A stretch of DNA of 63,530 bases, filler included, from Candidatus Tectimicrobiota bacterium (GCA_016193065.1; 9 parts of 9 records of this genome joined end to end with filler, not necessarily neighbours in it); one strand, 5' to 3'. Shown: positions 6,866 to 44,416, numbered from the whole stretch's first letter. Translations and numbers: made by a program. The notes: generated by a model from the letters alone, not told the origin.

Positions 6866-7051
6866 TGGTTGCTATTATCGCTCATGCAGTTCCGTCATTC
6901 ATGCTGTCCCGCAGTCCATGTCTCTGCTGGAACGGCCCCAGTATAGCAGACCTCCAGGACCTTCTGCACCGGAGTCAGGGCCGGAAAATCCCCAGGGGGG
7001 AAGGAGGTAACCTTAGCAAAGAGACCGTGAAAGCTGTAGACGAACCCCGGC

Positions 7052-14653: not shown

Positions 14654-14708
14654 ATCGGCTTCATTGTATTCCTTCCCCCCTGTTTTGCAACGGCGGCCTG
14701 CTAGCGGG

Positions 14709-15080
14709 CTTCCCCACTCCGAGTTCTTGCGGGTCCATGGGAAAGGGGCCGACTCCCGCCCTTCGCTCCGCGCCTCCCGCAGCGGGGGCGGCCAGGGTGG
14801 GACCCCTCCGCTACCGCCACGATAAGTTTTCGGCTGTCTGCAATCGAGTCTAGGCTGCGCGGTTTCCCATCCCTGGCCGCTCCCGGTGGGTTCCCCCGCT
14901 GCTCCCGGCAGTTTCGCTCAGGGCGGGAAGGTCGGCCCCCTCGGTGCTCTTCGTCCAAGGGGGTAGCCCGCGGAGGCGACCGACAGAGTTGCAGAAAGAG
15001 ACCGGGTGTGCCCCGTAGGGCGACTTACCTGTCTGCGTGTCCGCACAGGCAGGAAGTTTTGCAGGCGCCGCACCCAGAAA
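14709..15080 (+). repeat. MITE-like intergenic repeat copy (cut by contig end)
   Basis: Shares GCTACCGCCACGATAAG...CTGCGCGGTTTCCCATCCCTGGCCGCTCCC...CCCGGCAGTTTCGCTCAGGGCGGGAAGGTC with 44081-44202, and with 39870-39990 in reverse complement. Confidence 0.85.
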
Positions 15081-19984: not shown

Positions 19985-20311
19985 ATAGACGACCTTTTCC
20001 CCGTTCAACCGCGCTTCAAGAATCTCGCCGCCGGGATTGACGATATCGAGGCTTCCGCTCAGGAGCGCTTGAGTTGCCGTCCCTGACGCAATGTATTTGA
20101 GATCGACCGCCAATCCATATCGGACGAACAACCCCTTGTCCTGGGCCAACCACAGGGGAGCCATCAGCCCGCTAGGCGACGAGTAATTTGCTCTGAGCGT
20201 TTCGGTCTCGGCCCCCTGTGCGTTGCTGACAACGCCCGCCCAGCATACCAGGGCGATCCAGGCTACCGCGACGGTCCGCCTTCCCCACTGCCCGCGTCTG
20301 CCTCCGGTCAT
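19985..20311 (-). CDS. ABC transporter substrate-binding protein, NMT1/SsuA type (3' truncated)
   Basis: Signal peptide; APLWLAQDKGLF..YGL.V, QALLSGSLD. Confidence 0.8.
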
Positions 20312-20547
20312 CTCCCTCCCTCCTCTTCTTTACAAATACCCTCCAGTAACCCTTCCCCTCGGGAACTCTACCATCAACTCGGGTGGTCGATCGCCACCTC
20401 ACTGCTCCCCTCGTGCCCCAGACCGCCGGCGCGGGAGACCGGATCGCACGGAGGCATTCTTCCCGGAACATGGGGAATACGGACCCCCTCTGAAGGCCTT
20501 GCGGATCCGATTGATTCCTCTCCGGCTCAGGTACTTCCCCTCCGCAT

Positions 20548-21558
20548 CTACCGGTACAGATTCGCGATGAACCCGGATCCTTCCAGTTCTCTGAGGAAGC
20601 TGTCGTCCACGAGGCGGTTGACGTCCACGGAAGCGATGCGCGGATTCAGGGGGACCTGGATCTTCACGACGGTTCTCAAGCCTTCCAGCGTCGGGTAGGG
20701 GACCCGCGCGATCATCTTCACGCCGAAATAGTGCCGGGTTTTTTCGAGGATCTTCGGGTCCTGGATTTTGCTGTACTTCGCCAGGACTTTATGAGAAGTC
20801 TCCGCATCGGTTTTGAGGATATGGATGGCGTTGACGAAGGCCTTCATGAATTTCTCGACGTTGTCCCGGTGCGCCTGGATGTAGCGCCTGGTGACGGTGA
20901 CGCAGGCCCCCTGCGTCGGGATCCCCAGGGTGGAGATGTCCACCACGGTGTGATAGCCCAGGTCCTCCCCCTTAAAGAGCATGGGAGGGCTCAACATCCC
21001 CACGTCCACCACTCCGGTCTCCATGGCGGAGACGACCGTCTCCGGAGGCCCGATCGGGTTGATCTTCACATCCGCGGGGGTGAGCTTCAAATACTGCAGC
21101 GCCAGGAGGAGGGAGTTGTGAGGCTCGCTGCCGGGCTTGTCCGTGGCGATCACCTTCCCTTTGAGGTCCGCCGCCGTCATCGGGGTCTTTGACATCAGCG
21201 AGAGCCCCGGGGTGTTCGTCAGGCTTGCGATGATCACCACGTCCTGCCCGGCCGCCCCGGCATTCACTACGGCATTGCCGGAATTGACCGTGATGTCCAG
21301 GTCACCTGCCAGCAGCGCCTTGGTGGCGTTCTGGGAACCCCGGACAAACACGACCTCCGTGTCCATCCCGTACTTCTGGTACAGATTCTTCTCTTTGGCA
21401 ATCCAGATCGGGGCCATGACCCCGCTCACCGCAACCCAGGCGATCTTGGTCCTCGTCCCCTGGGCGAAAGCCGCCTGTTCGCGACCGGCAGGCGCCACAG
21501 GACTCCAGAGAAATGCGGCAAGGACAATAATCCATACGACCCGTTTCCAGTTTCCCAT
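20548..21558 (-). CDS. ABC transporter substrate-binding protein, NMT1/SsuA type
   Basis: Signal peptide; APIWIAKEKNLYQKYG, ALLAGDLD, DLKGK, LVDDSFLREL. Confidence 0.88.
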   Translation of the reverse strand: MGNWKRVVWIIVLAAFLWSPVAPAGREQAAFAQGTRTKIAWVAVSGVMAPIWIAKEKNLYQKYGMDTEVVFVRGSQNATKALLAGDLDITVNSGNAVVNAGAAGQDVVIIASLTNTPGLSLMSKTPMTAADLKGKVIATDKPGSEPHNSLLLALQYLKLTPADVKINPIGPPETVVSAMETGVVDVGMLSPPMLFKGEDLGYHTVVDISTLGIPTQGACVTVTRRYIQAHRDNVEKFMKAFVNAIHILKTDAETSHKVLAKYSKIQDPKILEKTRHYFGVKMIARVPYPTLEGLRTVVKIQVPLNPRIASVDVNRLVDDSFLRELEGSGFIANLYR

Positions 21559-21585
21559 GGTAGTTCTCCCCATCAGGACCGCCTT

Positions 21586-21897
21586 TTACTTCGGCGCTTC
21601 GGCGGCAAAGGCGCCGAATTCATAGGTAAGGACAAACTGCCGGCCGCAGTGGGAAATCCGCTCTCCGGCCCGGACCCCTTCGGGAAGCACGATCGTTTTG
21701 CGGCACACCGGACAGCTCACAATCTCCGCGATCCGGGCCACAAGCTCCGTCCCCCTCCCCTTCAACCGAAGGGTAACCCCCGCTCAGTTCGGACAGTCCA
21801 ACAGGTCATCCTGCTTGGCCGCCTCCGGCAAGCCGATGTACCTGCCTCACCCCGGGCACCAGATCCGATCCGGATTGGACGAAACTCCCCCGTTCAT
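21586..21897 (-). CDS. Putative selenoprotein: 103-aa zinc-ribbon-like protein with two CxxU motifs
   Basis: MNGGVSSNPDRIWCPG-U-GRYIGLPEAAKQDDLLDCPN-U-AGVTLR...SCPVCRKTIVLPEG...SHCGRQF...APK*. In-frame TGA at 21847-21849 and 21784-21786, each followed by a hairpin. ATGA overlap with the upstream glutaredoxin. Confidence 0.8.
21740..21783 (-). promoter_or_regulatory. Candidate bacterial SECIS after the second UGA of the zinc-ribbon gene
   Basis: CCCUUC-GGUU-GAAGGG stem-loop. The loop starts 16 nt after UGA and begins with G. Confidence 0.6.
21800..21846 (-). promoter_or_regulatory. Candidate bacterial SECIS after the first UGA of the zinc-ribbon gene
   Basis: Long hairpin GGCAGGU/ACCUGUU, CAUC/GAUG, GCUUG/CAAGC, CCG/CGG with loop GAGG 21 nt after UGA. 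Confidence 0.7.
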
Positions 21898-22136
21898 GGC
21901 AGCTTCAGCAGCTCCTGCAGCCTGCCCCGGTCGAACCCCACGATCACTTCGCCCCCCACGGTGATCACGGGAACCGCCTGTCTGCCGCTCAAGCGCACGA
22001 CTTCGTTGAGGGCCTCGAGATCTTCGGCCACATTGAATTCCTGGAAGACAACGCCTTTGGACGAAAGAAACTCTTTCGCTGAACGGCAGGCGCTTCACGT
22101 GGGCGCCGTGTAAACTTTCACTTCCGGTTGGATCAT
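21894..22136 (-). CDS. Selenocysteine-containing glutaredoxin (NrdH/YruB-like, UxxC)
   Basis: MIQPEVKVYTAPT-U-SACRSAKEFLSSKGV...SGRQAVPVITVGGEVIVGFDRGRLQELL. TGA 22095-22097 occupies the first Cys of CxxC. AGGAGG RBS. Confidence 0.92.
22050..22094 (-). promoter_or_regulatory. Candidate SECIS of the glutaredoxin
   Basis: AGCGCCU/AGGCGUU lower stem and CGAAAGA-GUU-UCUUUCG upper stem; loop 23 nt after UGA. Confidence 0.72.
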
Positions 22137-22259
22137 CCTTTTTCCTCCTCCTGAATCATAGCCGACCCATGCGCCGCACAATTTTTCAGCTCGTTCTTAA
22201 CCGCTCTCAATGTGCCACAGTGTCCCGCCAGGCCCTTTCAGCACAATTCGCGCATGATT

Positions 22260-22784
22260 TCAAAAATCGATGTCAATCTGTAGAGAATCGATAAACTTGT
22301 TGAATGAGGCAAATAATTCCATCACTCCAAGCGCTTCGATTATCTCGGCATCAGACGGGCCGGCCTCTCTAAGGGACCCGTAATCAGAATGCGATATCTT
22401 CAGGGGAGCCACATTGGCTTTTCTTGCAAAACTGATAAGTGCTTTTTCTTTCCCGCTAAAATTCGCTTTTTCTATATTCTCTTCGATATTTCTAATCTCT
22501 TCATCCGAAACACCAATGGATTTTAAAGCGGCGGTATGGGCACGGATGCAGTAATTGCAGCAGTTGTCTCTGGAAACCAGAACAGCAATGGCCTCTTTCA
22601 CTTTGCGGCTCAGGTTTCCTTCCATCATGAGCGCCTTGACCTTGTTCCAATTGGCCCCCAGAAGCGCTGGATGATGTGCATAGGTCTTAAACAGATTCGG
22701 CGCCGTGCCAAATGCGCTTTCAATTTCGTCGAGTACTTTCTCTGTTTCCTTTGATACGGTCTGGGGCGGTTTGATTCTCGACAC
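22260..22784 (-). CDS. AhpD/carboxymuconolactone decarboxylase-family peroxidase-related protein
   Basis: PNLFKTYAHHP, LSRKVKEAIAVLVSRDNCCNYCIRAH. Confidence 0.88.
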   Translation of the reverse strand: MSRIKPPQTVSKETEKVLDEIESAFGTAPNLFKTYAHHPALLGANWNKVKALMMEGNLSRKVKEAIAVLVSRDNCCNYCIRAHTAALKSIGVSDEEIRNIEENIEKANFSGKEKALISFARKANVAPLKISHSDYGSLREAGPSDAEIIEALGVMELFASFNKFIDSLQIDIDF

Positions 22785-22832
22785 GATATTTCCTTTTCTA
22801 AATGTCCGGTTTACCCGGGAATGTCTAAAACT

Positions 22833-22851
22833 ACCGACCATTCGGTCTATT
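22833..22851. promoter_or_regulatory. Putative TetR operator upstream of the ahpD-like gene
   Basis: ACCGACCATTCGGTCTATT, nearly identical to the site at 23477-23495; resembles the NemR-type box TAGACCnnnnGGTCTA. Confidence 0.7.
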
Positions 22852-22866
22852 TACTGTTAAGAGAAA

Positions 22867-23457
22867 TTACTTCTCCAATTCAATCAGTGTCCTTAAAGAA
22901 TTCAGACAATCCTTCAAGGGTTTTTCACTTTTTTCAAGGCGTGCAAGCATGATGCCTCCTTCGATAGTCATTACTATGTGCCTAGCCATCGCTTCCGCAG
23001 ACAAATCACATCGTATCTGTCCTGAAGACTGAGCCGACCGAACCGCTACCCGCACTCTTTCGATCCATTCGCCGAATACCCTGTCGATAAACACAGCCAC
23101 TTGTTTGTCTTTATCGCTCATTTCCAGTGCACTGTTACCAAAAATGCAGCCTCCGACGAACTTTGTACTTCTATGTTTTCCCAGAACCTTCTTAAAGAAA
23201 TTATCGAGGCTTTCGCCTGCTGTCCTTCCCGTGAGAGAAGAGTCAAGAAATTCGAGGAATTCCGTACGCGCTTTTTCGAGAACGGCGTAAGTGAGTTCAT
23301 TTTTATCGGAGAAATGGAAATACAAACTTCCTTTTTTAAGGCCCGTTGCTTCCATCAAATCACAAATGCTGGTGCCCTCAAAACCCTTTCGCTGAACGAG
23401 ACGGGTCGCCTCGAGTAGAATTTTCTCTTTTGTCAAAACTCCTTTAGACTGCCTCAA
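22867..23457 (-). CDS. TetR/AcrR-family regulator (NemR/LmrA-like)
   Basis: KGFEGTSI..GLKKGSLYFHFSDKNEL HTH; GGCIFGNSALE. Confidence 0.92.
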   Translation of the reverse strand: MRQSKGVLTKEKILLEATRLVQRKGFEGTSICDLMEATGLKKGSLYFHFSDKNELTYAVLEKARTEFLEFLDSSLTGRTAGESLDNFFKKVLGKHRSTKFVGGCIFGNSALEMSDKDKQVAVFIDRVFGEWIERVRVAVRSAQSSGQIRCDLSAEAMARHIVMTIEGGIMLARLEKSEKPLKDCLNSLRTLIELEK

Positions 23458-23476
23458 TTTTCATCCTTCCTCATAA

Positions 23477-23495
23477 ACCGACCGTTCGGTCTATT
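23477..23495. promoter_or_regulatory. Putative TetR autoregulatory operator
   Basis: ACCGACCGTTCGGTCTATT about 20 nt upstream of the tetR start. Confidence 0.7.
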
Positions 23496-23543
23496 TTATT
23501 ATAGAGGGAGACAAAAGGAAAGAAAAATTTCCCTGGACTCTCC

Positions 23544-24812
23544 TCAGGTGACGGGAATTCGCCGGTCAAAGACCACAAAGCGCGACCGGCGGGTCTCTTC
23601 GAGAGCAGCTTGAATCAACTTGCGCTCCCTCGGCTTTGTGTATTGAGGCAAAACCGCCTCGAAAAATCGGGTGTAAAAGTGATCCGGGTAAACGACCACC
23701 TGTGTTCTCAACTGAAGACCGCCGCTTTCAATTCGCTTCCGGTACGTCCACTTCCAGCGGCCTCCCGGCGGGATCCGCGTGTCGTAGATCTCCCGGGAAA
23801 GATCCAGCTCGACCTCGCGACCAATGGATTTTTCCACAAGACTCCCCGCGATCCTCTTCCCCGCGCGCTCCTCGAGCCAGAATCGGACGATCACCTTGGG
23901 CGTCACGTAGGTGGGGAAGAAGTGCCCTGTCCCCCGGTTCGCGATTTGAAGGGTCGCCTCCAAAAGCTCTCCCGGACGATATCGGGATTTTCCGCTGGTT
24001 AGGGACACGTCAATCCCCTGGCGGACCATCTCCGGAGAGTGGATCCCCTGCCAGAGATGTCTGCGGTCCGGCATGTGACACCCCTGACAGGTAACCCCGG
24101 AGCGGGCGTAAGAACTCTCCAGCCACTCGGCGTAGGTGTTCTCCAAAAGTTTCCCGTTCAGGGCGAAGCCGTCCTCTCGGAACTGATGACAATCTTTGCA
24201 GAACTCGGATCGGCTGAAGGTCTCCTGAGAGGTAAAACCCCCGTGGGGAAGGGAGGCCTGTGCCGGCTTCGCGGATTCAGGCGGCCCGCCCCGCGGGGGA
24301 GGGCCAAAGCGCCGGTGTTTGCGCACGTGACAGGCGGCGCAAATCAACCCTCCTGCTTGCAGGTCCTCATCGAAGCCGGTGTTGTTGACGAACACTCCGG
24401 ATCCGGCGGGTGAGCGCAGTTTTCTGAGTTGCTCGGACCGGGGCGCATGACAGCTCTGGCAAAGTTCCGCCGTGCCGGGGTCCCTGCCCTCCATTTCAAG
24501 CACCTGCCCGAGTACTCCCGGGCCCATGCCTCGGCTGTGCCGTGAGGTCCTCCAGGCACGATATTGCTCCACGTGGCAGGTGCCGCAATCCTCCGGCCGG
24601 AGGGATGCCTCCAGTGGACTGTATCCGGCGGGAGCCTCCCCTTGAGGGGGAATGGGCTTTCGCCAGTGAGACTCCAGAAACGATTCAATCTCCCCGGCGG
24701 GAGACTGTTGGGGAAGGGTCCAGGAGAGCAAAAGACCCAGGCCTCCCAGGGCAAAGCCCAAGCTCACCAGGGCCGAAGGACGGAGTCGTTTTTTACCCGC
24801 TTGGATCTCCAA
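23544..24812 (-). CDS. Pentaheme c-type cytochrome (c554-like) with N-terminal membrane anchor/signal
   Basis: Five CxxCH motifs: CGTCH, CQSCH, CAACH, CKDCH, CQGCH. Confidence 0.88.
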   Translation of the reverse strand: MEIQAGKKRLRPSALVSLGFALGGLGLLLSWTLPQQSPAGEIESFLESHWRKPIPPQGEAPAGYSPLEASLRPEDCGTCHVEQYRAWRTSRHSRGMGPGVLGQVLEMEGRDPGTAELCQSCHAPRSEQLRKLRSPAGSGVFVNNTGFDEDLQAGGLICAACHVRKHRRFGPPPRGGPPESAKPAQASLPHGGFTSQETFSRSEFCKDCHQFREDGFALNGKLLENTYAEWLESSYARSGVTCQGCHMPDRRHLWQGIHSPEMVRQGIDVSLTSGKSRYRPGELLEATLQIANRGTGHFFPTYVTPKVIVRFWLEERAGKRIAGSLVEKSIGREVELDLSREIYDTRIPPGGRWKWTYRKRIESGGLQLRTQVVVYPDHFYTRFFEAVLPQYTKPRERKLIQAALEETRRSRFVVFDRRIPVT

Positions 24813-24891
24813 GATGAATTCGCTTCCTTACCGACGAAATGACGGAGGGAGGGGCATTTCCTCCCCTCCCTCGCCTGTGGATCTACCCGTT

Positions 24892-25260
24892 TTACTTGAC
24901 CTCCCGATCCAGCTTCTCCTTGTAGATGTTCCCGCTGCCCGGAGCGGCGCACGGATTCGCCGCCGCCCAGGGGTTGGCCGCCGCCGGCCGCGCAGTCGCC
25001 TTCGGAGAACTCACCTCCCGCTCCAGTTTCTCCCTGTAGATGTTCCCGCTGCCCGGAGCGGCACAAGGATTTTGTGCCTTGGGCGCACAAGGGTTCTGTG
25101 CCTTTGGGGCACATGGGTTGGCTGCCGGGGTGGCCGGAGAGGAGACCTCCCGTTCCAACTTTTCCCTATAGATCCTCTCCTGGGACCAGGAGACTCCAAC
25201 AGAGCCGACCAGAAAAGTCAGCACGGCCATCAGGACCACAACTGCCTTTACGGACCTCAT
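24892..25260 (-). CDS. Small secreted protein made of NPCA and IY(R/K)EKL(E/D)REV repeats
   Basis: Signal peptide and GGAGG RBS; three IYxEKLxREV units and several NPCA units; repeats visible at DNA level. Confidence 0.75.
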   Translation of the reverse strand: MRSVKAVVVLMAVLTFLVGSVGVSWSQERIYREKLEREVSSPATPAANPCAPKAQNPCAPKAQNPCAAPGSGNIYREKLEREVSSPKATARPAAANPWAAANPCAAPGSGNIYKEKLDREVK

Positions 25261-25382
25261 CGTTCCCCTCCCTCCTGGATCGCTTATAGCAATCCTCTAC
25301 TGGAATACACCCGAACTCAACCGGGAAAGCAATTCACCAGCGGTTCGGGAACCTACAAATCTCGAAATTAATTCCTCCGCAT

Positions 25383-26129
25383 CTACAGCCGCTCCAATAA
25401 CCATCGGGGCGTGATCTGGATCGCATAGCTGTTCAACGCCGTGAACGTATTCGTCAAAAGGAGGACTCCGACGATGACCAATACAAGCCCTCCGACTGTA
25501 TGGATCACGGGAACCAGGCCTCGATAACGGCGAAACAGCCGCAAGAACGAGTTCATCCCCAATGAACTCAGAAAGAAAGGGACCGCAAGGCCGATGGAAT
25601 ACAATCCCAGCAGGGCAATTCCTTGACGCACTTCCTCTGAGGTTGTTGCCAACAGCAAAATCGAACTAAGCACCGGCCCCACGCAGGGAGTCCAACCGAC
25701 AGCAAAGGTGACTCCGACCAGAAAGGCCCCCAGATAGCTGCCCGGCCGGCTTTTCACCTGGAACTGCTTTACTTGCATGAGCGGCCCAAACCGGATCAGG
25801 CCGCTAATCGCAAGCCCGAACAGAACGATCAGGCCGCCCCCGATCTGACGGATGAGATCCTGGTACTGGAACAGGGAGCGGCCAGCCAGCGAAAAGGACC
25901 CTCCCAATGTCAGGAAGACGAGGGAAAATCCCAGGATGAACCAGAGGGACCGCACAATCACACGACCGCGCACCTCTTTGAGCTTCCCGGGATCTTGCAA
26001 TTCCTCCAGAGAACTCCCCGCCACGAAGGAGAGGTACGACGGGACCAGGGGTAAAACACAGGGCGACAGGAAAGAAAACGCCCCGGCACCCAGCGCAATG
26101 ACCGAGCTGACTTCGGCAGGCGCCACCAT
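25383..26129 (-). CDS. ccdA: Cytochrome c biogenesis protein CcdA (DsbD TM domain)
   Basis: SFLSPCVLPLVP, GWTPCVGPVL, YSIGLAVPF. Confidence 0.93.
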   Translation of the reverse strand: MVAPAEVSSVIALGAGAFSFLSPCVLPLVPSYLSFVAGSSLEELQDPGKLKEVRGRVIVRSLWFILGFSLVFLTLGGSFSLAGRSLFQYQDLIRQIGGGLIVLFGLAISGLIRFGPLMQVKQFQVKSRPGSYLGAFLVGVTFAVGWTPCVGPVLSSILLLATTSEEVRQGIALLGLYSIGLAVPFFLSSLGMNSFLRLFRRYRGLVPVIHTVGGLVLVIVGVLLLTNTFTALNSYAIQITPRWLLERL

Positions 26130-26134
26130 GATCG

Positions 26135-26695
26135 CTACTTCACTTTCAGGGCCGAAATCAGCTGGTCCCATTCGGGCCTGCTCAGGTCTCGTCCCCCCAC
26201 GGCCTTCCCGGCGATTCTTCCTTTCCCGTCGATGAGAACCAGCGTCGGCGGGGCAAAAAATTCATAGGACCGGGCCACCTTCATGTCCTTGTCCAAGAGG
26301 ATCGGGAACGTCGCTCCCTTCTCCCGCACAAAGGGGCGGACCACCTTCTCTCCTTCCGCATCGATGGAGATCCCCAGGACCACCAGGTTTTCAGCTTTGT
26401 GCTTCTTGTAGAACGCCTCGAAGGAAGGAAACTCCTCCCGGCAGCTTGGTCACCAGGTGGCCCAGAAAACCAGCAGGATGGGTTTTCCCCGCCAATCGGA
26501 GAGTTTCTTCTTCCCTCCGTTGAGGTCCGGCAAAGTAAAATTCGGAGCCGGACGAACCGTCTGCGGCTCAAACCCCAGGGCCTTGAGGAGCCCCGGTTCG
26601 ACCCCCATTGCCGTGGCGCGAAAAGCAAACATCACGAGAACAATGATGCTCAGGCCATAAACCCACCGGGACGTTCCTTTACGTTGCTTTCCCAT
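26135..26695 (-). CDS. Selenocysteine-containing TlpA/ResA-like disulfide reductase (UxxC)
   Basis: APNFTLPDLNG...LLVFWATW-U-PSCREEFP...VLGISID...FPILLD...PTLVLIDGKG. TGA 26450-26452 joins the split ORFs 26450-26695 and 26135-26383 in one frame. Confidence 0.92.
26412..26449 (-). promoter_or_regulatory. Candidate SECIS of TlpA
   Basis: GGGAGGA-GUU-UCCUUCC stem-loop 17 nt after UGA; same GAGUUUC apex as the glutaredoxin hairpin. Confidence 0.68.
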
Positions 26696-26777
26696 CGGAT
26701 ATCCCCCTCCCCCTTATTCTCCCCGTGTCATCCAGATCCGAGATCGTGTCGGGGATCTCGTTAAGATCCGATCAATC

Positions 26778-27161
26778 TCATTGCAAACTCCAAGGCCAGG
26801 AAGAGATGAATGTGATCAGAAGCGCCCCTCCAGACAGGGCGATGTTTTTCCAGAAATGGTGCAACTGGTTCATGCGGACCATGGGGTCCTTCTCCGCCCA
26901 GAAGTTGTGCATCTTAAAGGCAGTGGGAACGAGGAAAATGATCAAGAGCCATCCCCCAAGCACCGGCTGGTAGCCCAGCAGGATACTAAGACCGCCCAAT
27001 AGCATCAAAATCCCGGTGCCCGCCACGGCCAGGCCGGGGGCCGGGATCCCCTTGCTGCGGGAGTACGCAGTCAGTTGGCCCATATCCGCAAAGTGATGGA
27101 TGCCATTCCAGATAAAAAACCCGCCAAAGACGATGCGACCGATCAGGAAGAGTACGTTCAT
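26778..27161 (-). CDS. DoxX-family membrane protein
   Basis: LIGRIVFGGFF, GGLSILLG, HNFW...HFWKNIALSGG. Confidence 0.9.
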   Translation of the reverse strand: MNVLFLIGRIVFGGFFIWNGIHHFADMGQLTAYSRSKGIPAPGLAVAGTGILMLLGGLSILLGYQPVLGGWLLIIFLVPTAFKMHNFWAEKDPMVRMNQLHHFWKNIALSGGALLITFISSWPWSLQ

Positions 27162-27293
27162 GGCTCCTCGCCTTTCTCGCTGTTGCCCTTTCCAGGGTTC
27201 TCAGGGGATGGGGTTTCAGGAGCCATTTTTAAGCTGCCTTCCTTTGTCGATCAAGCTTCTTTTCCCGGGCGGTTTCCTGCCCTCACCCGGATG

Positions 27294-27953
27294 CTACTTG
27301 GGGGCGCAAGGATTCTTGGGAGCGCAAGGGTTACCCGCCGCCCCGCAAGGGTTCTTTGCCGCACAGGGATTCTTTGCCCCGGCGGGTTTCTTGGAAGCAG
27401 CGGCCTTGAACTTCTTTTGAACCTCACCGGAGTAGGCAGTTAGCGCTGCCAGCTCCTTCGAATCCCAGGCCAGCGGCTTGGCCGCCATGGGGACCACCAT
27501 GCAGATCTGCACCATTTCATCCAGGTGGATCTTGGCCAAACCGGCCTTCTCCTGCACCATATCCACCGCATGCGGGTAAGGCTTGGCAAATCCGGGCTTG
27601 AAGGCTGCATTGTTCTGATGGCAGGTCTGGCAGGACAGGCCGTTGGTGCTCAGCTTGGTATCTTTCCAGAGCTGCTCTCCCAGCTTGACCAGCTCGGCCC
27701 GCTTGCCGGCAAAGAGCTTGGTCCCGGCAGGACGCGTGATCAGTTTGGGGTCCACTTCCCATTTTCCGGCCTTGGCTGGCTTGGCGGCACACGGGTTTGT
27801 TGGCGCGCACGGATTCGCCGCCTTTTTTGGTGCGCACGGGTTGGCTGCCGCGCACGGGTTAGCTGCCTTTTGCGCTGCATCGGCTGCTATGAGACCCAAC
27901 CCGAGAATACCGGCAATCAGCATCACGACGATTAGCAAACCTCGAAGTCTCAT
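27294..27953 (-). CDS. Monoheme cytochrome c (TsdA/SoxA-like domain) flanked by NPCA repeats
   Basis: Signal peptide; NGLSCQTCH; DEMVQICMVVPMAAKPLAWDSKELAALTAY; NPC repeats at both ends. Confidence 0.8.
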   Translation of the reverse strand: MRLRGLLIVVMLIAGILGLGLIAADAAQKAANPCAAANPCAPKKAANPCAPTNPCAAKPAKAGKWEVDPKLITRPAGTKLFAGKRAELVKLGEQLWKDTKLSTNGLSCQTCHQNNAAFKPGFAKPYPHAVDMVQEKAGLAKIHLDEMVQICMVVPMAAKPLAWDSKELAALTAYSGEVQKKFKAAASKKPAGAKNPCAAKNPCGAAGNPCAPKNPCAPK

Positions 27954-28428
27954 GAAATCCCCTCCTCTCAGTTCGGCGTTAGCTTCAAAGGCCACGCACA
28001 AAATAACCAACTCTGAGGTTGTAACCTTTTAACTTGCCAGATAGTATGGTTGCCTCATGCTATCTGGGGTCTGATGAACAGACTGTAGTTCAGACTACAA
28101 ATCCCTCGCTTCGGTCCTCAAAAGATCAACTTATAGATGATCGCCCCTACCCCTCCCAGGAGTAGCAACCACGTGGAGGGTCACATCTGCCTCCAAAGAC
28201 TTTTCCTCTTCATGGTTCTCCCTTCTGAAGGTCTTTCCTCCCACAAGAGGAAAATGGAATCCCGGCCAGCAAACAGGTTCGGTTCTCGGCACTCTGTCGA
28301 CTTATTTCATGCTAGATAGATGAAAGCGGATCCCGTTGGATTCAAAAACTTTCACTTTTTTCCGAAGCCACGGGGTTTGCAGATCCTGAATTCGTCTTCT
28401 GGTGCAGAGTCTAGCAGAGGATTTCTTG

Positions 28429-28660
28429 TCTACCTTCGGAGACATGGCCGCGCCGGACGCCGCGGACGAAGGGCAGATTTTCCCCGCCCATCGGAGAGCT
28501 TTTTGTTCCCTCCGTTGAGGGCCGGCAGTGTGAAATCCGGGGCGGCCTGAAGCGCCCCTGGCTCAAATCCCAGAGCCTTGAGGAGGTCCGGCTCGATCCC
28601 CAGTGCCCGCCCGATGGCCCCGAAGACGAGCAGAACCGCAAGATCCGTCCGGATTGGCCA
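28429..28660 (-). pseudogene. Truncated duplicate of the TlpA 5' region
   Basis: GIEPDLLKALGFEPGALQAAPDFTLPALNGGNKKLSDGRGK aligns to TlpA GVEPGLLKALGFEPQTVRPAPNFTLPDLNGGKKKLSDWRGK, then diverges before the active site. Confidence 0.8.
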
Positions 28661-28663
28661 CGC

Positions 28664-29047
28664 TCATTGCAGGCTCCAGGGCCATGAGGAGATGGACGTG
28701 ATCAGAAGAGAGGCTGCAGCCAGGGCGATGTTTTTCCAGAAATGGTGCATCTGGTTCATGCGGATCATGGGGTCCTTCTCCGCCCAGAAGTTGTGCATCT
28801 TATAGGCGCTCGCAATGAGGAAGATCACCAGCAACCATCCTCCAATCACCGGCTGGTAGCCCAGCAGGATACTCAACCCACCCGCCAGCATCAGTAGTGC
28901 GGTGCCCACAACGGCCAGGCCGGGAGCCGGAACCCCCTTGCTGCGGGAGTATGCAGTCATCTGCTTCAATTCGACAATGTTATAGATACCGCGCCAGACG
29001 AAGAAGCCCCCAAAGACAATGCGACCAATCAGGAAGAGAACATTCAT
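28664..29047 (-). CDS. DoxX-family membrane protein (paralog of 26778-27161)
   Basis: Near-identical termini MNVLFLIGRIVFGGFF ... ISSWPWSLQ. Confidence 0.9.
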   Translation of the reverse strand: MNVLFLIGRIVFGGFFVWRGIYNIVELKQMTAYSRSKGVPAPGLAVVGTALLMLAGGLSILLGYQPVIGGWLLVIFLIASAYKMHNFWAEKDPMIRMNQMHHFWKNIALAAASLLITSISSWPWSLQ

Positions 29048-29107
29048 GACTCTTCTCCTTTCTCGAAGTTGTCCTTCCCAGAAAAACACCCGCCCCCAAA
29101 ACCGGGT

Positions 29108-29330
29108 TTAAGGTCGACACGCCGAACCGGTTCTCCGTTTCTCCGTAAGCACCCAGTCGATCTCTAACGAGTCTTCTTTCAAGAAAACGCCGTAGGCGGC
29201 CTGGGCGGTCGCTATGGACACATAGCCGCGCCCGACGTCCCGGACGACCCGCTCCACTTCCCTGTGGAGCGGGTCTCCGTATCCACCGCCTCCCGGGTAC
29301 TCGATGAGGATGCGGTCTTCCCTGGAGAAG
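29108..29330 (-). pseudogene. C-terminal remnant of hydantoinase B/oxoprolinase
   Basis: EYPGGGGYGDPLHREVERVVRDVGRGYVSIATAQAAYGV; no start codon, upstream in-frame stop. Confidence 0.75.
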
Positions 29331-29523
29331 ATGGATCCGCATTCGTTAGAGACGGCAAGGACCCCGCCCCCATGGGATCGAAGTCCCCTCGCACAGTTTG
29401 CAAAAAACTTTCAAGAAGTTGGAGTCCAATTCTCAAGCCCTTGAGGTCTAACTGTCAAGGCTTTTTCGAAGAAGTTACGCGAAAGAGTACCGTCGTCTGG
29501 AAAAAATGCCAGCGGCCCCTGCC

Positions 29524-30259
29524 CTATTCCGCCGGCTTTTGCCGGAGGTGCTTGGGGATGACCAGGTTCTCCAGCAACTCAAAGGCAAACTCGGCGAGGA
29601 CGGCCAGCAGCGCGGCGGGAACCGCGCCTTCCAAAATCAGAGAGGGATCATTCAGAGCGAGCCCGGTCACAATCGGCTCACCCAGACCCCCGGCTCCGAT
29701 GAAGGCGGCCAGCGTGGCTGTGCCGATGTTGATGACGGCGGCCGTCTTGATGCCGGCCAGAATCATCGGAGCGCCCAGAGGGAGCTCGACGTGCCGCAGC
29801 CGCTGCCAGGCGGTGAGGCCCATGCCCACGGCGACTTTTTTCAGCACCGGATCGATGGAAAACAGGGCGGCCGCCGTGTTCCTCAAAATGGGAAGAAGCG
29901 CGTACAGAAAAAGCGCCACGATGGCGGGCGTGGGGCCGATCCCAAGCAGTGGGATCATGAAGGCCAGGAGAGCGATGGAGGGGATGGTCTGCAGCAACCC
30001 CGCCACGTAAATGACCGGCCGGGAGATCACGCGCAGCCGGTAGACGAAAACTCCAAAGGGGATCGCCACGGCCATCGCCGCCAGGAGTGCAATCAGGGTC
30101 AGCTTGAGGTGCGTGGCGACACGGGAGAGCAAGGTGACCCACTTACCCGGCTCCACGAAACCGCCCTGGCCGTGCAGCAACCCTTTTTTGCTTAGAAACC
30201 CCCGGGCGATTTCCGCAAAGCTCTTCCCCTCCAGAACGGCCATTCCGTTGAGTTCCTGC
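29524..30259 (-). CDS. Osmoprotectant (glycine betaine) ABC permease, fused type (5' truncated)
   Basis: LQTIPSIALL, YALLPILRNT, VELPL, AAFIGAGGLG. Confidence 0.88.
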
Positions 30260-30359: not shown

Positions 30360-31180
30360 ACCCAGGTGCAGGCGACGCAGACGGCGGTGGCGGCGGCTAC
30401 TGCTGCGACTGCGGGGAATGCGCAGGCGGCCCAGTTTGCCACGCAGCAGGCCCAGCAAGCGGCGACTCTGGCCACGCAGTCCACGCAGTCGGTGGCGGCG
30501 GGCGTGCAGGCAGTGGCCCAGACCCAGGCGACCAATCCTCAGGCGGCGGTGGCGGCGGCGCAGGCGACCCAGCAGGCGACTCAGGCGACGCAGATGGCGG
30601 TGGGTGTGGTCAGCAACGTTGCCAATACGGCGGTGACGACTTCGTTGGCTCAGGCTCAACAAGGGGTGGCCCAATCGCAGGCGGCGGTGGCGGCGGCGCA
30701 GGTGGCGCAGCAGGCGGCGGCGCAGGTGAGCACGTTGGCGCAAGCGGCAGTGGTGGCGGCGCAGAGTGCTTCGCAGGCGACGGGGGCGGCGGCCCAGCAG
30801 GCGGCGGCTCAGATAGTGCAAGCGGTTCAACAGGCGGCGGAGACCCAGGTGCAGGCGACGCAGGCGGCAGTGGCGGCGGCTACGGCGGCGGCGGCGGGAA
30901 ATGTGCAGGCGGCGCAGTTTGCCACGCAGCAGGCCCAGCAGGCGGCGACTCTGTCCACGCAGTCCTCACAGTCGGTGGCGGCGGGCGTGCAGGCAGCGGC
31001 CAGGGCTGAGGCGGCCAATCCGCAAGCGGCCCAGGCAGCGGCGCAGGCGGCCCAGAGTGCGACTCAGGCAGCGCAGACAGCGGTGGGTGCAGTCAGCAAT
31101 GTGGTCAACACGGCGGTGACGGCATCGGTGGCGCAAGCTCAGCAAGGGGTGGCCCAGTCGCAGGCGGCGGTGGCGACGGC
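30360..31180 (+). repeat. Internal tandem duplication with a 483-nt (161-codon) period
   Basis: ACCCAGGTGCAGGCGACGCAG at 30360 and 30843 with about 330 nt of continued similarity. Confidence 0.85.
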
Positions 31181-32207
31181 GCAGCAAGCCACCCAGGCGG
31201 CCTCCCAGACGGCGACTGCAGCGGCCCAGGGGAACGTGGCGCGGGCGTTGCAAGGGGCACAGCAGACACAGACACTGTCTACGCAGGTACAGACGCAGAC
31301 GGCGGCGCAGACTCCCACGGCTCCGGCACCTCCGACCCAGGCCGCAGCCCCGCCGCCGGCGGCAGCCCCGGTCTTTTCCGGGTTTACGCCCCCATCCCCA
31401 TCGGTCGGGGGAGGAACAGTCACGACGACTACGACCGCCGCCGCCACAACGCCCAGCGCCTATCCGAGACCGGCGCTCGGGAGTCTTCTTACAAACTCAA
31501 CGGCAACGGGAGTCCATGGACTCTCCAATGATGGTTCCGAGCTGGTGGTTTTTGACGGATTCGCGTTTCCGTACTTCGTTGAAACGTACCCCCACGTTTA
31601 CGTGAACGCCAATGGGAACCTCACGTTTGCGGGAGGCGACGACGATCATTCGGGCGATTTGCTGAGTCGAGTCGCGAATTCCTGGGTGCGAATCGTGCCC
31701 CTGTACGCAGATTTCAATATCCAGGGCAATACGAATCCGAATAGTTCTCTCGGAACGATTCATACGGCTCAGAGGACTTCGAGCTTTTCAGTGACGTGGA
31801 AAAACGTGAACTCTCACAATGTTCCCGGAAACCAGGATACCACCTTTCGGATCACGCTATTCAGTACGGGCGCCATTGAAATGAGCTACCAGACAATTGC
31901 ACCAAAAGTCCAGGGAAGCACTCGAGACAACGTCTTTGTCGCTCTGATTCCCGGGGGTGGTCTTGAAACGGACATCCTGAGCGTGATCCTGAGTGCCGGA
32001 GGAGGCGGCAGCGCAGGCAGGCAGGTGATCAGCCAGATCTTCACTCAGAATAATGGCGGAAACATCAGCACAGATCTGGAAGGGAAAAATCTGCTCTTTG
32101 TGCCGAATGCCTCGGGGGGCTTTGACCTGATCGTGGCGCCTTTGACTGAAACAGATCCATCGGGAATTATCCCGGGTCCGCCGGAGATCGCGAGTCCTTC
32201 GATCTAG
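30360..32207 (+). CDS. Ala/Gln-rich repetitive surface/secreted protein with C-terminal NIDO-like beta domain (5' truncated)
   Basis: AQT-rich helical repeats, Pro/Thr linker, then GFAFPYF...VYVNANGNLTF...IVPLYADF...TFRITLFSTGAIEMSY. Confidence 0.7.
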   Translation, partial: TQVQATQTAVAAATAATAGNAQAAQFATQQAQQAATLATQSTQSVAAGVQAVAQTQATNPQAAVAAAQATQQATQATQMAVGVVSNVANTAVTTSLAQAQQGVAQSQAAVAAAQVAQQAAAQVSTLAQAAVVAAQSASQATGAAAQQAAAQIVQAVQQAAETQVQATQAAVAAATAAAAGNVQAAQFATQQAQQAATLSTQSSQSVAAGVQAAARAEAANPQAAQAAAQAAQSATQAAQTAVGAVSNVVNTAVTASVAQAQQGVAQSQAAVATAQQATQAASQTATAAAQGNVARALQGAQQTQTLSTQVQTQTAAQTPTAPAPPTQAAAPPPAAAPVFSGFTPPSPSVGGGTVTTTTTAAATTPSAYPRPALGSLLTNSTATGVHGLSNDGSELVVFDGFAFPYFVETYPHVYVNANGNLTFAGGDDDHSGDLLSRVANSWVRIVPLYADFNIQGNTNPNSSLGTIHTAQRTSSFSVTWKNVNSHNVPGNQDTTFRITLFSTGAIEMSYQTIAPKVQGSTRDNVFVALIPGGGLETDILSVILSAGGGGSAGRQVISQIFTQNNGGNISTDLEGKNLLFVPNASGGFDLIVAPLTETDPSGIIPGPPEIASPSI

Positions 32208-38132: not shown

Positions 38133-38336
38133 TTTCCCATATCCTCCCAAGGGGTAGCCCCCGCCGGCGACCTTCTATTGCTCCTGCTGAAAGGGACCGG
38201 GTGTGCCCCGAACGGGCGACTGAAAGTTTTGCAGGCGTCGTCGCCGGAAAGCTTGAATCTCCTCGCATGCGAAAGAGAACCGACCCTCAATTGCGCTCGT
38301 GCGCAAAAGTTTCCTGGAGCCCCAAGGGGCACCCCG
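38133..38336 (+). repeat. Partial copy of the MITE-like repeat
   Basis: GGGGTAGCCC...GACCGGGTGTGCCCCG..GGGCGAC..AAGTTTTGCAGGCG, shared with 14959-15068. Confidence 0.75.
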
Positions 38337-38351
38337 GTCTCCTTTTGGAAT

Positions 38352-39482: not shown

Positions 39483-39569
39483 GATCGAACTCGTCCTCTG
39501 GAAACGGGGTCTCCCTGCCTTGTAAAACTATAGCACATGCTGCGCTCGGGCAACAGAAGACCACGGGCG

Positions 39570-39700
39570 AAGTCCTCGGGGTGCCCCCTTGGGCTCACGA
39601 AGCGCTTGCGACGTGAGTTGCGTCGGCCGGATTGAGAGTTCTCTTCCTCGCAACCGCTTAGATCGCCTACGGGGGCAACCCCTCGGACAGGATGGGGAAG
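39570..39700 (-). repeat. Partial copy of the MITE-like repeat (second-half module)
   Basis: Reverse complement aligns with 44221-44340 (GGGGTTGCCCCCG.AGGCGA.CTAAG...GAGCCCAAGGGGGCAC). Confidence 0.75.
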
Positions 39701-39740
39701 CTTTCCATTGTCCAATGTGCAAGATGCTTGATGGCTAGGA

Positions 39741-40132
39741 GGGGCGGCGCCTGCAAAACTTTAAGTCGCCCGTTCGGGGCACACCCGGTCCCTTTCTACA
39801 AAAGCAATATAAGGTTGCCCGCGGGGGCTACCCCCTCAGGTAGAGACGACCGAAGAGGCTGCCCGATCCGCCTTGAGCGTAACTGCCGGGAGCAACGGCA
39901 CCCAAAGGGTACCCGACCGGGAGCGGCCAGGGATGGGAAACCGCGCAGCCAGAACGCGCTTTCAGATAGCTGGAAACATATCGTGGCGGTAGGGGAGGGT
40001 TCCGGGTACCCGTCCTGGGTGTGGGTGCCCCGGGTCGTTGCGGAACACCCGCGAAGCGCGGGTACCCGGAAGCGAAGGGGGGGAGGGCAGTCCTCACTAC
40101 AGGAGCACATGCAGAAACTGGGGGTGGGCAAG
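39741..40132 (-). repeat. MITE-like repeat copy in reverse orientation
   Basis: Ends with the TIR motif AAACTGGGGGTGGGCAAG; body aligns in reverse complement to 14709-15070. Confidence 0.82.
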
Positions 40133-43969: not shown

Positions 43970-44367
43970 CTTGCCCACTCCCAGTTTTTGGAGCTCCATA
44001 GCCGGGGGGACTGCCTCCCGCCCCTCGCTTCACGCCTCCCGTAGCGACCCTTGTCGGGGCGCCCAGGGTGGGAGCCCTCCGCTACCGCCACGATAAGTGT
44101 TCAGCTATCTGCAAGCGCGTCCAGGCTGCGCGGTTTCCCATCCCTGGCCGCTCCCGTTGGGTCCCCGCTGCTCCCGGCAGTTTCGCTCAGGGCGGGAAGG
44201 TCAGTCCCCTTTGGGCTCTTTCTCCGAGGGAGTTGCCCCCGCAGGCGACCTAAGAGGTTTCGGGTCAGAAGAGACTCGATCCAGCTGACAAATCTACCGC
44301 CGAAAGCTCTTCGGGAGCCCAAGGGGGCACTCCCGAGGATGCCGAAGAGAAAGTGGGGGTGGGCAAG
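43970..44367 (+). mobile_element. Complete MITE-like element (about 400 bp) with TIRs and target-site duplication
   Basis: TIR CTTGCCCACTCCCAGTTT (43970-43987) / AAAGTGGGGGTGGGCAAG (44350-44367), flanked by TTCATCTGA at 43961-43969 and 44369-44377. No transposase. Confidence 0.85.
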
Positions 44368-44416
44368 CTTCATCTGAGCATTGACATGAGAGTTGAATTC
44401 ATTTACTTTGCAGCCT

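Follow-up and report, generated by a model that had tools for sequence, protein, structure and literature searches.

A predicted CxxU…CxxU zinc ribbon, with relatives beside mercury-resistance genes, and a separate cytochrome block in a patchwork redox locus of a Candidatus Tectimicrobiota bacterium

Introduction

Zinc ribbons of the LysW/ArgW type are built on a CxxC…CxxC spacing, and the carrier tail of LysW is an EDWGE-type motif. Several other small proteins hold selenocysteine (Sec, U) in place of a metal-ligand cysteine; the FmdB-family ribbon, the UxxU HMA protein, a dual-CXXC protein and MbdU are catalogued as small metal-binding selenoproteins (PMC13188914, Table 1), the same source catalogs UxxC glutaredoxins and redoxins, and it describes Sec in CxxU motifs as mostly redox. 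The mer operator of Tn501/Tn21 is described with a GTAC dyad (PMC11049809). Among periplasmic cytochromes, the active heme of TsdA is His/Cys-ligated and its substrate site holds two Arg residues (PMC6879331), MccSep is a polysulfide reductase that needs C239 and U325 (PMC13510729), and the pentaheme c552 of PDB 5ZE8 is described with no clear role (PMC11976967). Here we analyze positions 21,586 to 29,047 of a 63,530-nucleotide stretch of DNA (the window, filler included) from a Candidatus Tectimicrobiota bacterium (GCA_016193065.1), where a glutaredoxin (Grx) with an in-frame TGA and a small zinc-ribbon protein with two such codons stand in a row of twelve elements that also includes unusual cytochromes, a TlpA-like protein with an in-frame TGA, CcdA and DoxX. 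A first-pass annotation had read the whole row as one dedicated trans-membrane electron relay.

Comparison with other genomes makes it probable that the region is pieced together from three units (A, B and C) that are not neighbours elsewhere; that its four in-frame TGA codons likely encode Sec; that the Grx–ribbon pair (unit C) likely acts as a cytoplasmic soft-metal trap derived from a mer-type operon; and that the cytochrome block (unit A) likely forms a periplasmic thiol/sulfur redox module of its own.

Results

Layout and co-occurrence of the units

The window consists of several contigs joined by N linkers, and the cluster lies wholly within one of them, C245 (window 19985-30259). The minus strand carries all twelve elements, and their order is the one first annotated: doxX copy 1, tlpA remnant, cytochrome with Asn-Pro-Cys (NPC) repeats, doxX copy 2, TlpA, CcdA, NPC peptide, pentaheme cytochrome, tetR, ahpD-like gene, Grx and ribbon. 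The contig is not chimeric: contigs from four groundwater runs of one study (one run possibly being the source sample) together bridge each gene junction, with no single listed piece spanning all; depth over the stretch, from contigs of the best run, X1, is even at 20-38x in all 30 bins; and the rows listed hold no variant at the four TGAs.

To compare neighbourhoods, we used 28 wide ribbon loci (21 from one main phylum and 7 from elsewhere, the window locus excluded) and 22 NPC-cytochrome loci, the latter covering 11 of the 12 genomes with this cytochrome in a 400-genome cross-domain sample (G355, on a short contig, was left out). Neighbouring genes were called with a custom codon-scored caller, all-vs-all clustering of raw open reading frames having proved too noisy; some short genes were missed. 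Units A and C are neighbours in none of these 50 other loci. Pentaheme, CcdA and DoxX are absent from all 28 ribbon loci by tblastn, the Grx–ribbon pair is absent from all 22 cytochrome loci, and in the main phylum the ribbon is carried by 30 of 51 genomes and the NPC cytochrome by none. Since the parts do not co-occur, the test that the first-pass annotation had set for its relay goes against the cluster as a whole and leaves the cytochrome block standing. What survives of the proposed relay is the linkage of NPC cytochrome, pentaheme and thioredoxin/CcdA; the Grx–ribbon pair, which holds three of the four Sec codons, goes with mer-type genes instead.

The glutaredoxin–ribbon pair

Unit C (21586-22136) comprises two genes:

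21894..22136, minus strand: glutaredoxin, UxxC (U14, TGA 22097-22095), with a conserved hairpin resembling a selenocysteine insertion sequence (SECIS); PF00462, 62.7 bits
21586..21897, minus strand: tandem LysW-like zinc-ribbon protein, 103 residues, CxxU…CxxU in the first ribbon (U17, U38); its ATG overlaps the grx stop (ATGA)

Neither protein has a signal peptide-like N terminus. A UxxC glutaredoxin with TGA adjoins the ribbon in all 36 loci collected. The ribbon profile scored strongly in 5 of the 400 sampled genomes (weak matches in G077 and G116 were left out), and a metagenome scan gave six loci, of which two full-length ones were retained and four partial ones excluded from the counts. 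The ribbon has 70 matches in a 50%-identity library, the full-length ones carrying Cys at both TGA positions; several long matches that are unrelated zinc fingers were left out of the alignment (A2). A single-sequence search of the genome contigs returned one weak partial match. This genome holds a ribbon paralog on contig C64, which is the sister of the window copy on the ribbon tree (support 0.85).

The ribbon was modeled with Cys in place of each Sec; the fold is all-beta (mean predicted local distance difference test score, pLDDT, 86) and best matches LysW (3vpb_E; root-mean-square deviation 1.3 Å over 46 residues, E 0.011), and the two Sec positions both coincide with predicted ligands in a single LysW-type knuckle. 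No NCBIfam or Pfam family besides the LysW-like ones covers the ribbon. It is absent from the covered portion of Table 1 of a 2026 selenoprotein review, where "LysW" does not occur (PMC13188914), and from the part of bioRxiv 2022.07.06.499078 consulted; literature searches whose coverage lay outside most subscription journals and supplements gave nothing on the ribbon or NPC-cytochrome families. We take the ribbon for a well-supported candidate selenoprotein family, uncatalogued in the sources covered and present here in a double-Sec form.

Predicted selenocysteine codons

The four in-frame TGAs lie at 26452-26450 (TlpA, UPSC), 22097-22095 (Grx, USAC), 21849-21847 and 21786-21784 (ribbon, CPGU and CPNU). 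Each aligns to a conserved Cys, and the first and last are 4,669 bp apart, which bears out the count of four predicted Sec codons within 4.7 kb made at the outset. The 36 ribbon loci comprise 3,174 codons, among them 32 TGAs in frame. Each of the 32 stands for the second Cys of either the first CxxC (site 1, 19 cases) or the second (site 2, 13 cases), and neither TAA nor TAG occurs inside any of the frames, whose sequence is conserved on either side of the TGAs. The combinations CC (15 loci), UU (11), UC (8) and CU (2) are intermixed on the ribbon tree, TGA forms recurring on separate branches.

Hairpins were sought with a strict stem search scored against 300 synonymous shuffles, and stems of at least 6 bp were counted. 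Such a stem follows the TGA in 34 of 36 homologous Grx genes; at ribbon site 2 it follows 13 of 13 TGA codons vs 3 of 23 Cys codons. In the window, the Grx TGA is followed by an 8-bp stem (p=0.007) and the TlpA TGA by a 7-bp stem that 3 of 300 shuffles reached (p=0.01). This genome encodes SelB above cut-off and two selD genes (contigs C120 and C175), each with one TGA at the Sec position; selA is present in the same-genus genome G001 and above cut-off in 49 of the 51 genomes of the ribbon-rich phylum. Taken together, Sec read-through is likely at all four sites.

Mercury-type neighbourhood of the pair

In 22 of the 28 wide loci, genes for MerE, MerT-like, MerR, HMA, MerF or MerB-like proteins lie within 3.5 kb of the ribbon; the same holds for 6 of the 7 loci from outside the main phylum. 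Among cluster representatives, MerF and the UxxU HMA protein (NF041115) pass their own cut-offs, and MerE, HMA and MerB pass Pfam cut-offs. Because its relatives mostly adjoin mercury-resistance genes, the ribbon likely binds mercury-like metals.

A mer-type operator, with a TTGAC -35 box, a 19-bp spacer and a GTAC dyad, stands 81-118 nt ahead of grx in 12 loci. Under leave-one-out scoring these sites reach 30.7-43.5; one more locus scores 19.9, a site ahead of merR on contig C64 scores 29.6, and thirteen loci score -0.5 or less, which gives 14 of 27 loci with the operator and one further locus lacking upstream DNA. The C64 paralog stands in an operon of merR, Grx(UxxC) and ribbon(CxxC/CxxU) with this operator, followed by two extracytoplasmic function (ECF) sigma genes (L009/L092, 1086-2100). 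The window grx has no mer-type operator in the 8 kb upstream (best score 6.8 vs 19.9-43.5 elsewhere), and contig C245 has no mer gene among the families scored. Without such an operator, and placed downstream of the tetR-ahpD insert described below, the window pair is likely expressed with a thiol/oxidant-stress unit.

MerA was found above cut-off in 1 of 51 main-phylum genomes, one that lacks the ribbon, and in 1 of 5 others. Its absence is not a rule, because the end of contig C46 in this genome (L116, 3800-4936) holds the 3' part of a merA gene ending in a Cys-Cys pair, together with merE and the gene of a membrane protein that also has a CC pair; the whole-genome MerA search missed this part. 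Two further arrangements were seen among the relatives. One locus (G054:C27, L011 8480-11260) strings together merT-like, Grx(U), ribbon(UU), UxxU HMA (NF041115 above cut-off), cupin-like and TlpA(U) genes, with six Sec codons in about 2.1 kb, and the MerT-like membrane proteins upstream of grx in L065, L073 and L078 end in NPC motifs, a possible link of NPC motifs to metal handling.

The cytochrome block

Unit A (23544-29047) comprises eight elements:

28664..29047, minus strand: doxX copy 1, 127 residues, protein 78% identical to copy 2 (tblastn; DNA duplicate 81%); PF07681, 39 bits (cut-off 23.6)
28430..28663, minus strand: degenerate partial copy of the tlpA 5' part, 56% identical to TlpA residues 11-74, with no start codon and no active site
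27294..27953, minus strand: secreted monoheme SoxA/TsdA-like cytochrome c (NPC cytochrome), 219 residues, 8 NPC repeats shared between its two ends, with C151 invariant and predicted as distal heme ligand; PF21342, 36.5 (cut-off 27)
26778..27161, minus strand: doxX copy 2, 127 residues; PF07681, 45.9 bits
26135..26695, minus strand: TlpA/ResA-like thiol-disulfide oxidoreductase, UxxC (U82, TGA 26452-26450), with SECIS-like hairpin
25383..26129, minus strand: CcdA (DsbD transmembrane domain); PF02683, 56.3 (cut-off 27.1)
24892..25260, minus strand: secreted NPC peptide, 122 residues, 4 NPC repeats and an internal repeat, no Pfam family
23544..24812, minus strand: pentaheme cytochrome c, 422 residues, distant relative of MccSep/ExtKL and PDB 5ZE8, with no non-heme Cys and an invariant K221

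The NPC cytochrome has 912 homologs. Among the best 120, every one has a single CxxCH motif and 87 have at least six NPC repeats, in arms that are predicted to be disordered. C151 lies inside PF21342 and is invariant in the 27 aligned sequences (alignment A4), and in a Foldseek search TsdA (E 3.5e-3) and SoxAX gave the top rows. Literature searches on NPC repeats turned up nothing relevant. We also considered a bufferin-type reading of these repeats, as a ribosomally synthesized and post-translationally modified peptide, and set it aside, no MNIO gene (PF05114) being found in this genome, which is 86% complete.

Pentaheme homologs number at least 2,403. In 120 of them, exactly five heme motifs occur in 118 and no non-heme Cys in 115; profile matches include MccSep (PDB 9WT8, E 1.1e-14) and c552 (PDB 5ZE8, E 1.8e-12). 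The invariant Lys221 lies two residues from the position of MccSep C239. Four of the 120 are fused to a TlpA- or thioredoxin-like domain, and in L140 and L146 the pentaheme domain sits within 11-heme fusion proteins.

The two cytochromes travel together. In the 400-genome sample the NPC cytochrome occurs in 12 genomes, the pentaheme in 17 and both in 8, vs 0.5 expected if independent, related genomes not being independent. They are adjacent in 5 genomes, found with the window protein alone before entering alignment A5. In G074 the NPC cytochrome, an NPC peptide, the pentaheme, a thioredoxin and a CcdA-like gene form one row, the peptide, similar to that of the window, directly preceding the pentaheme. 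A sulfur substrate for the block is only suggested, by resemblance of fold.

Two observations elsewhere in the genome touch the NPC peptide. Contigs C104 (1-300 and 3950-4273) and C46 (3147-3554) encode, beside ECF sigma/anti-sigma genes, secreted peptides with repeated "GSIAQ..LDREI.SP" units that resemble its non-NPC repeat (E 9e-7); on C104, a frame near 6940 starts with NPC repeats.

The tlpA remnant noted in the first-pass annotation is real, and its nature can be refined: it was duplicated together with doxX copy 1 from doxX copy 2 and the 5' part of tlpA (26483-26612 vs 28478-28607, 81% identical DNA). By its DNA identity of 81%, the doxX pair with the remnant is one local duplication.

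The tetR-ahpD insert and the flanks

Units A and C are separated by unit B (22260-23500):

23477..23496, unstranded: operator-like imperfect palindrome upstream of tetR, 20-nt repeat, 95% identical
22867..23457, minus strand: TetR-family regulator (TetR_C_13), GC content 0.449
22833..22852, unstranded: second copy of the palindrome, upstream of ahpD
22260..22841, minus strand: AhpD-like peroxidase-related protein (CxxC), GC content 0.454; TIGR01926, 106.5 (cut-off 81.8); true start probably GTG 22784

Both genes have a GC content of 0.45, with 0.46-0.49 at third codon positions (GC3); the remaining intact genes have a GC content of 0.56-0.63 and a GC3 of 0.70-0.77. This composition and the twin operators agree with the suggestion that the pair is a later insertion, and it is likely an autoregulated one. 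A likeness of the twin boxes to the NemR box was unconfirmed in the literature and is not claimed.

What the same-genus genome G001 has in common with the locus is limited to the flanking permease and, at the opposite end, 171 nt, and it gave no match to the ribbon, NPC cytochrome or pentaheme; for these reasons the locus looks like a variable region. A promoter/terminator scan was at chance level (3 vs 2.9). Past the ribbon, after 13 nt, starts an NMT1/SsuA-like ABC substrate-binding gene (window 20548-21573) of a family with more than 25 copies in the genome. Elsewhere in the window, a dispersed, non-coding-looking repeat family (14700-15080, 38140-38350, 39560-40090 and 43960-44370) has dozens of genomic copies, often at contig ends, and contig C246 encodes a low-complexity Ala/Gln-rich protein (30366-32207, plus strand) that contains an internal repeat of 343 nt (86% identical) and is truncated where the contig begins.

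Discussion

The sequences show the anatomy of the genes, the pairing of TGA with Cys, the gene neighbourhoods and where operators are present or absent; Sec insertion, metal binding, substrates and regulation are inferred from these, from fold and from the known chemistry of the families. We propose that the first knuckle of the ribbon would hold Zn in a Cys2Sec2 site, that transporters of the MerT/MerE/MerF type would deliver Hg(II) or a comparable ion, which would take the place of the Zn and bind the selenolates, and that the Sec-Grx, translationally coupled to the ribbon, would either maintain the site in reduced form or remove the metal. The window pair, being out of mer control, would act as a soft-metal/thiol stress buffer behind tetR-ahpD, while the C64 paralog keeps merR and the operator. 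In unit A, TlpA(Sec) would receive electrons from CcdA and reduce both the cysteines in the NPC repeats and the one that ligates the SoxA/TsdA-like heme; the NPC cytochrome would have the pentaheme as its electron partner, and the block would likely act on a sulfur compound or a soft metal. A more ambitious reading, which is possible and which we put forward tentatively, makes the ribbon the prototype of a Cys2Sec2 zinc-knuckle selenoprotein family that forms, with the Sec-Grx, the core of a selenium-based mercury sink in mer-type operons of lineages mostly without MerA; it adds a second, unstudied system in which a Cys-ligated NPC monoheme cytochrome and a Lys-bearing, Cys-free branch of the MccSep-fold pentahemes are fed by a Sec-TlpA/CcdA relay.

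Several observations weigh against these proposals. On the Sec side, ribbon site 1 shows no SECIS excess (3 of 19 TGA vs 3 of 17 Cys codons; window p=0.27), a looser test based on minimum free energy of folding does not separate TGA from Cys there either, and the site 2 hairpin of the window is borderline (p=0.07); in this 86% complete assembly neither selA nor, among 34 ARAGORN tRNAs, a tRNA-Sec was found, the top Rfam match having the coordinates of tRNA-Trp. No structure match of the ribbon or NPC cytochrome reached E 0.001. The neighbouring MerR and MerT-like proteins score best on Hg-type models and fall under the family cut-offs, which leaves room for a metal other than Hg, and the locus counts are not independent, one phylum having supplied 21 of the 28 wide loci. 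Six ribbon loci lack mer genes; they include four of one genus, g355, which has 8 of the 11 double-Sec forms and where the pair (L075, L076, L079, L080) is flanked on one side by a PrpD-family gene and, at three of these four loci, on the other by a thioredoxin reductase-like gene; neither mer genes nor operator are present there. TlpA-like genes occur near 4 of 28 ribbon loci, one of them with Sec, which ties units A and C weakly. Finally, CcdA-like genes lie near only 3 of the 22 NPC-cytochrome loci, and TlpA proper, like DoxX, near none by tblastn.

The alternative that survives best, though unlikely in our estimate, is that unit A is a periplasmic sink for soft metals (Cu/Hg), in which NPC cysteines chelate the metal and TlpA/CcdA reduce them, so that its tie to unit C would be functional rather than genetic. 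The many NPC repeats, predicted to be disordered, would suit such a sink, as would the NPC motifs on MerT-like proteins and the description of DoxX among the core genes of copper metallophore clusters with Cys repeats (PMC12452194). The main text of that source does not contain "NPC", no MNIO gene was found in this genome at the completeness given, and the folded core of the cytochrome is TsdA/SoxA-like with an invariant Cys, all of which speak against the sink.

Slightly less probable is a reading of the Grx–ribbon pair as a general cytoplasmic redox switch that works by diselenide/selenenylsulfide exchange and Zn release, the mer neighbourhood then reflecting thiol protection in metal stress and not capture. 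It accords with the mostly redox use of Sec in CxxU motifs (PMC13188914), with the six loci that lack mer genes, several of them beside a thioredoxin reductase-like gene, and with the operator-free window copy downstream of an AhpD-like gene. Capture of a soft metal is favored over this switch by the position of both Sec residues on predicted ligands of one knuckle, by the operator directly ahead of grx in 13 loci, and by neighbours that include MerB and, above cut-off, MerF and the UxxU HMA protein.

That all twelve genes form a single dedicated relay, moving electrons across the membrane to handle oxidants or sulfur/selenium compounds, is improbable, and as a conserved system the comparison of genomes largely refutes it. 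The genes are contiguous, on one strand, not chimeric and all thiol- or redox-related; besides the TlpA-like neighbours and the NPC ends of MerT-like proteins, an NPC-motif match occurs in 1 of 28 ribbon loci, and the ribbon and NPC cytochrome share 2 of the 5 other ribbon genomes in the 400-genome sample, on different contigs. These ties are set against the absence of pentaheme, CcdA and DoxX from every ribbon locus, of the pair and DoxX from every cytochrome locus and of the NPC cytochrome from the ribbon-rich phylum, and against the low-GC insert with its own operators that splits the units. Least of all do we credit the ribbon TGAs as true stops of a pseudogene, with Grx and TlpA the only selenoproteins: the lack of a site 1 SECIS excess would fit, as would the fact that selA/selC were not found in this assembly, and the confinement of 32 of 32 TGAs to two Cys positions in 36 frames free of TAA/TAG, with conservation on both sides and recurrence on separate branches, speaks against true stops.

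The naturally occurring CC, UC, CU and UU ribbons offer a ready series in which the contribution of Sec to a metal site can be compared, and they bear on whether bacteria trap Hg with Se without reducing it. The family is missed in selenoproteomes and mer-operon surveys because gene callers cut these genes. The NPC cytochrome and pentaheme, with their many homologs (912 and at least 2,403), point to a widespread periplasmic module near MccSep, a sulfur-respiration enzyme of recently solved structure, in sequence space, while the twelve-gene cluster itself, as a local mosaic, carries little weight.

Set beside known systems, the Grx, the UxxC redoxins and the CcdA-ResA/TlpA relay are standard families, with nothing new in these proteins alone. 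The NPC cytochrome shares with the His/Cys-ligated SoxA/TsdA cytochromes a Pfam domain above cut-off (PF21342), an invariant Cys and the top fold matches; its first label, TsdA-like, needs correcting in the heme count, TsdA having two hemes and this protein one. From SoxA it differs in its score on the SoxA model (29.8, below 110), its NPC-repeat arms and the lack of adjacent sox genes. The pentaheme has the five CxxCH motifs of MccSep/ExtKL and c552 (PDB 9WT8, 5ZE8); it differs from MccSep in having Leu at the C239 position, in not keeping U325 and in scoring 51.6 on NF040886, below 250.

With Tn21/Tn501-type mer operons (MerR, operator, MerT, MerP, MerE, MerF, MerB, MerA), the ribbon relatives and C64 have in common the operator-like site and the transporter/regulator neighbours; ribbon operons differ in adding Sec-Grx and ribbon at the head, their genomes mostly have no MerA above cut-off, and the window copy stands without operator or mer genes. 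LysW/ArgW (PF21344, NF041070, PDB 3vpb_E and 3wwn_B) shares the zinc-ribbon fold and the CxxC…CxxC spacing, and is the best Pfam, NCBIfam, Foldseek and Atlas match. The ribbon departs from it in being tandem, about 95-100 residues long, with Sec at two ligands; in scoring 44.6 bits on NF041070, under the cut-off of 75; in lacking the acidic carrier tail, the window protein ending in AEAPK and only 1 of 36 in GE; and in standing beside grx and mer genes, not lys/arg genes. The FmdB-family ribbon (TIGR02605, UxxU), the UxxU HMA protein (NF041115), the dual-CXXC protein (NF041197) and MbdU (NF045648) likewise have Sec for a metal-ligand Cys in a small protein; the ribbon scores 18.5 bits on TIGR02605 (below 31.3), has no match to the other three at E 0.1, and is set apart from all four by its CxxU…CxxU motif in a tandem ribbon.

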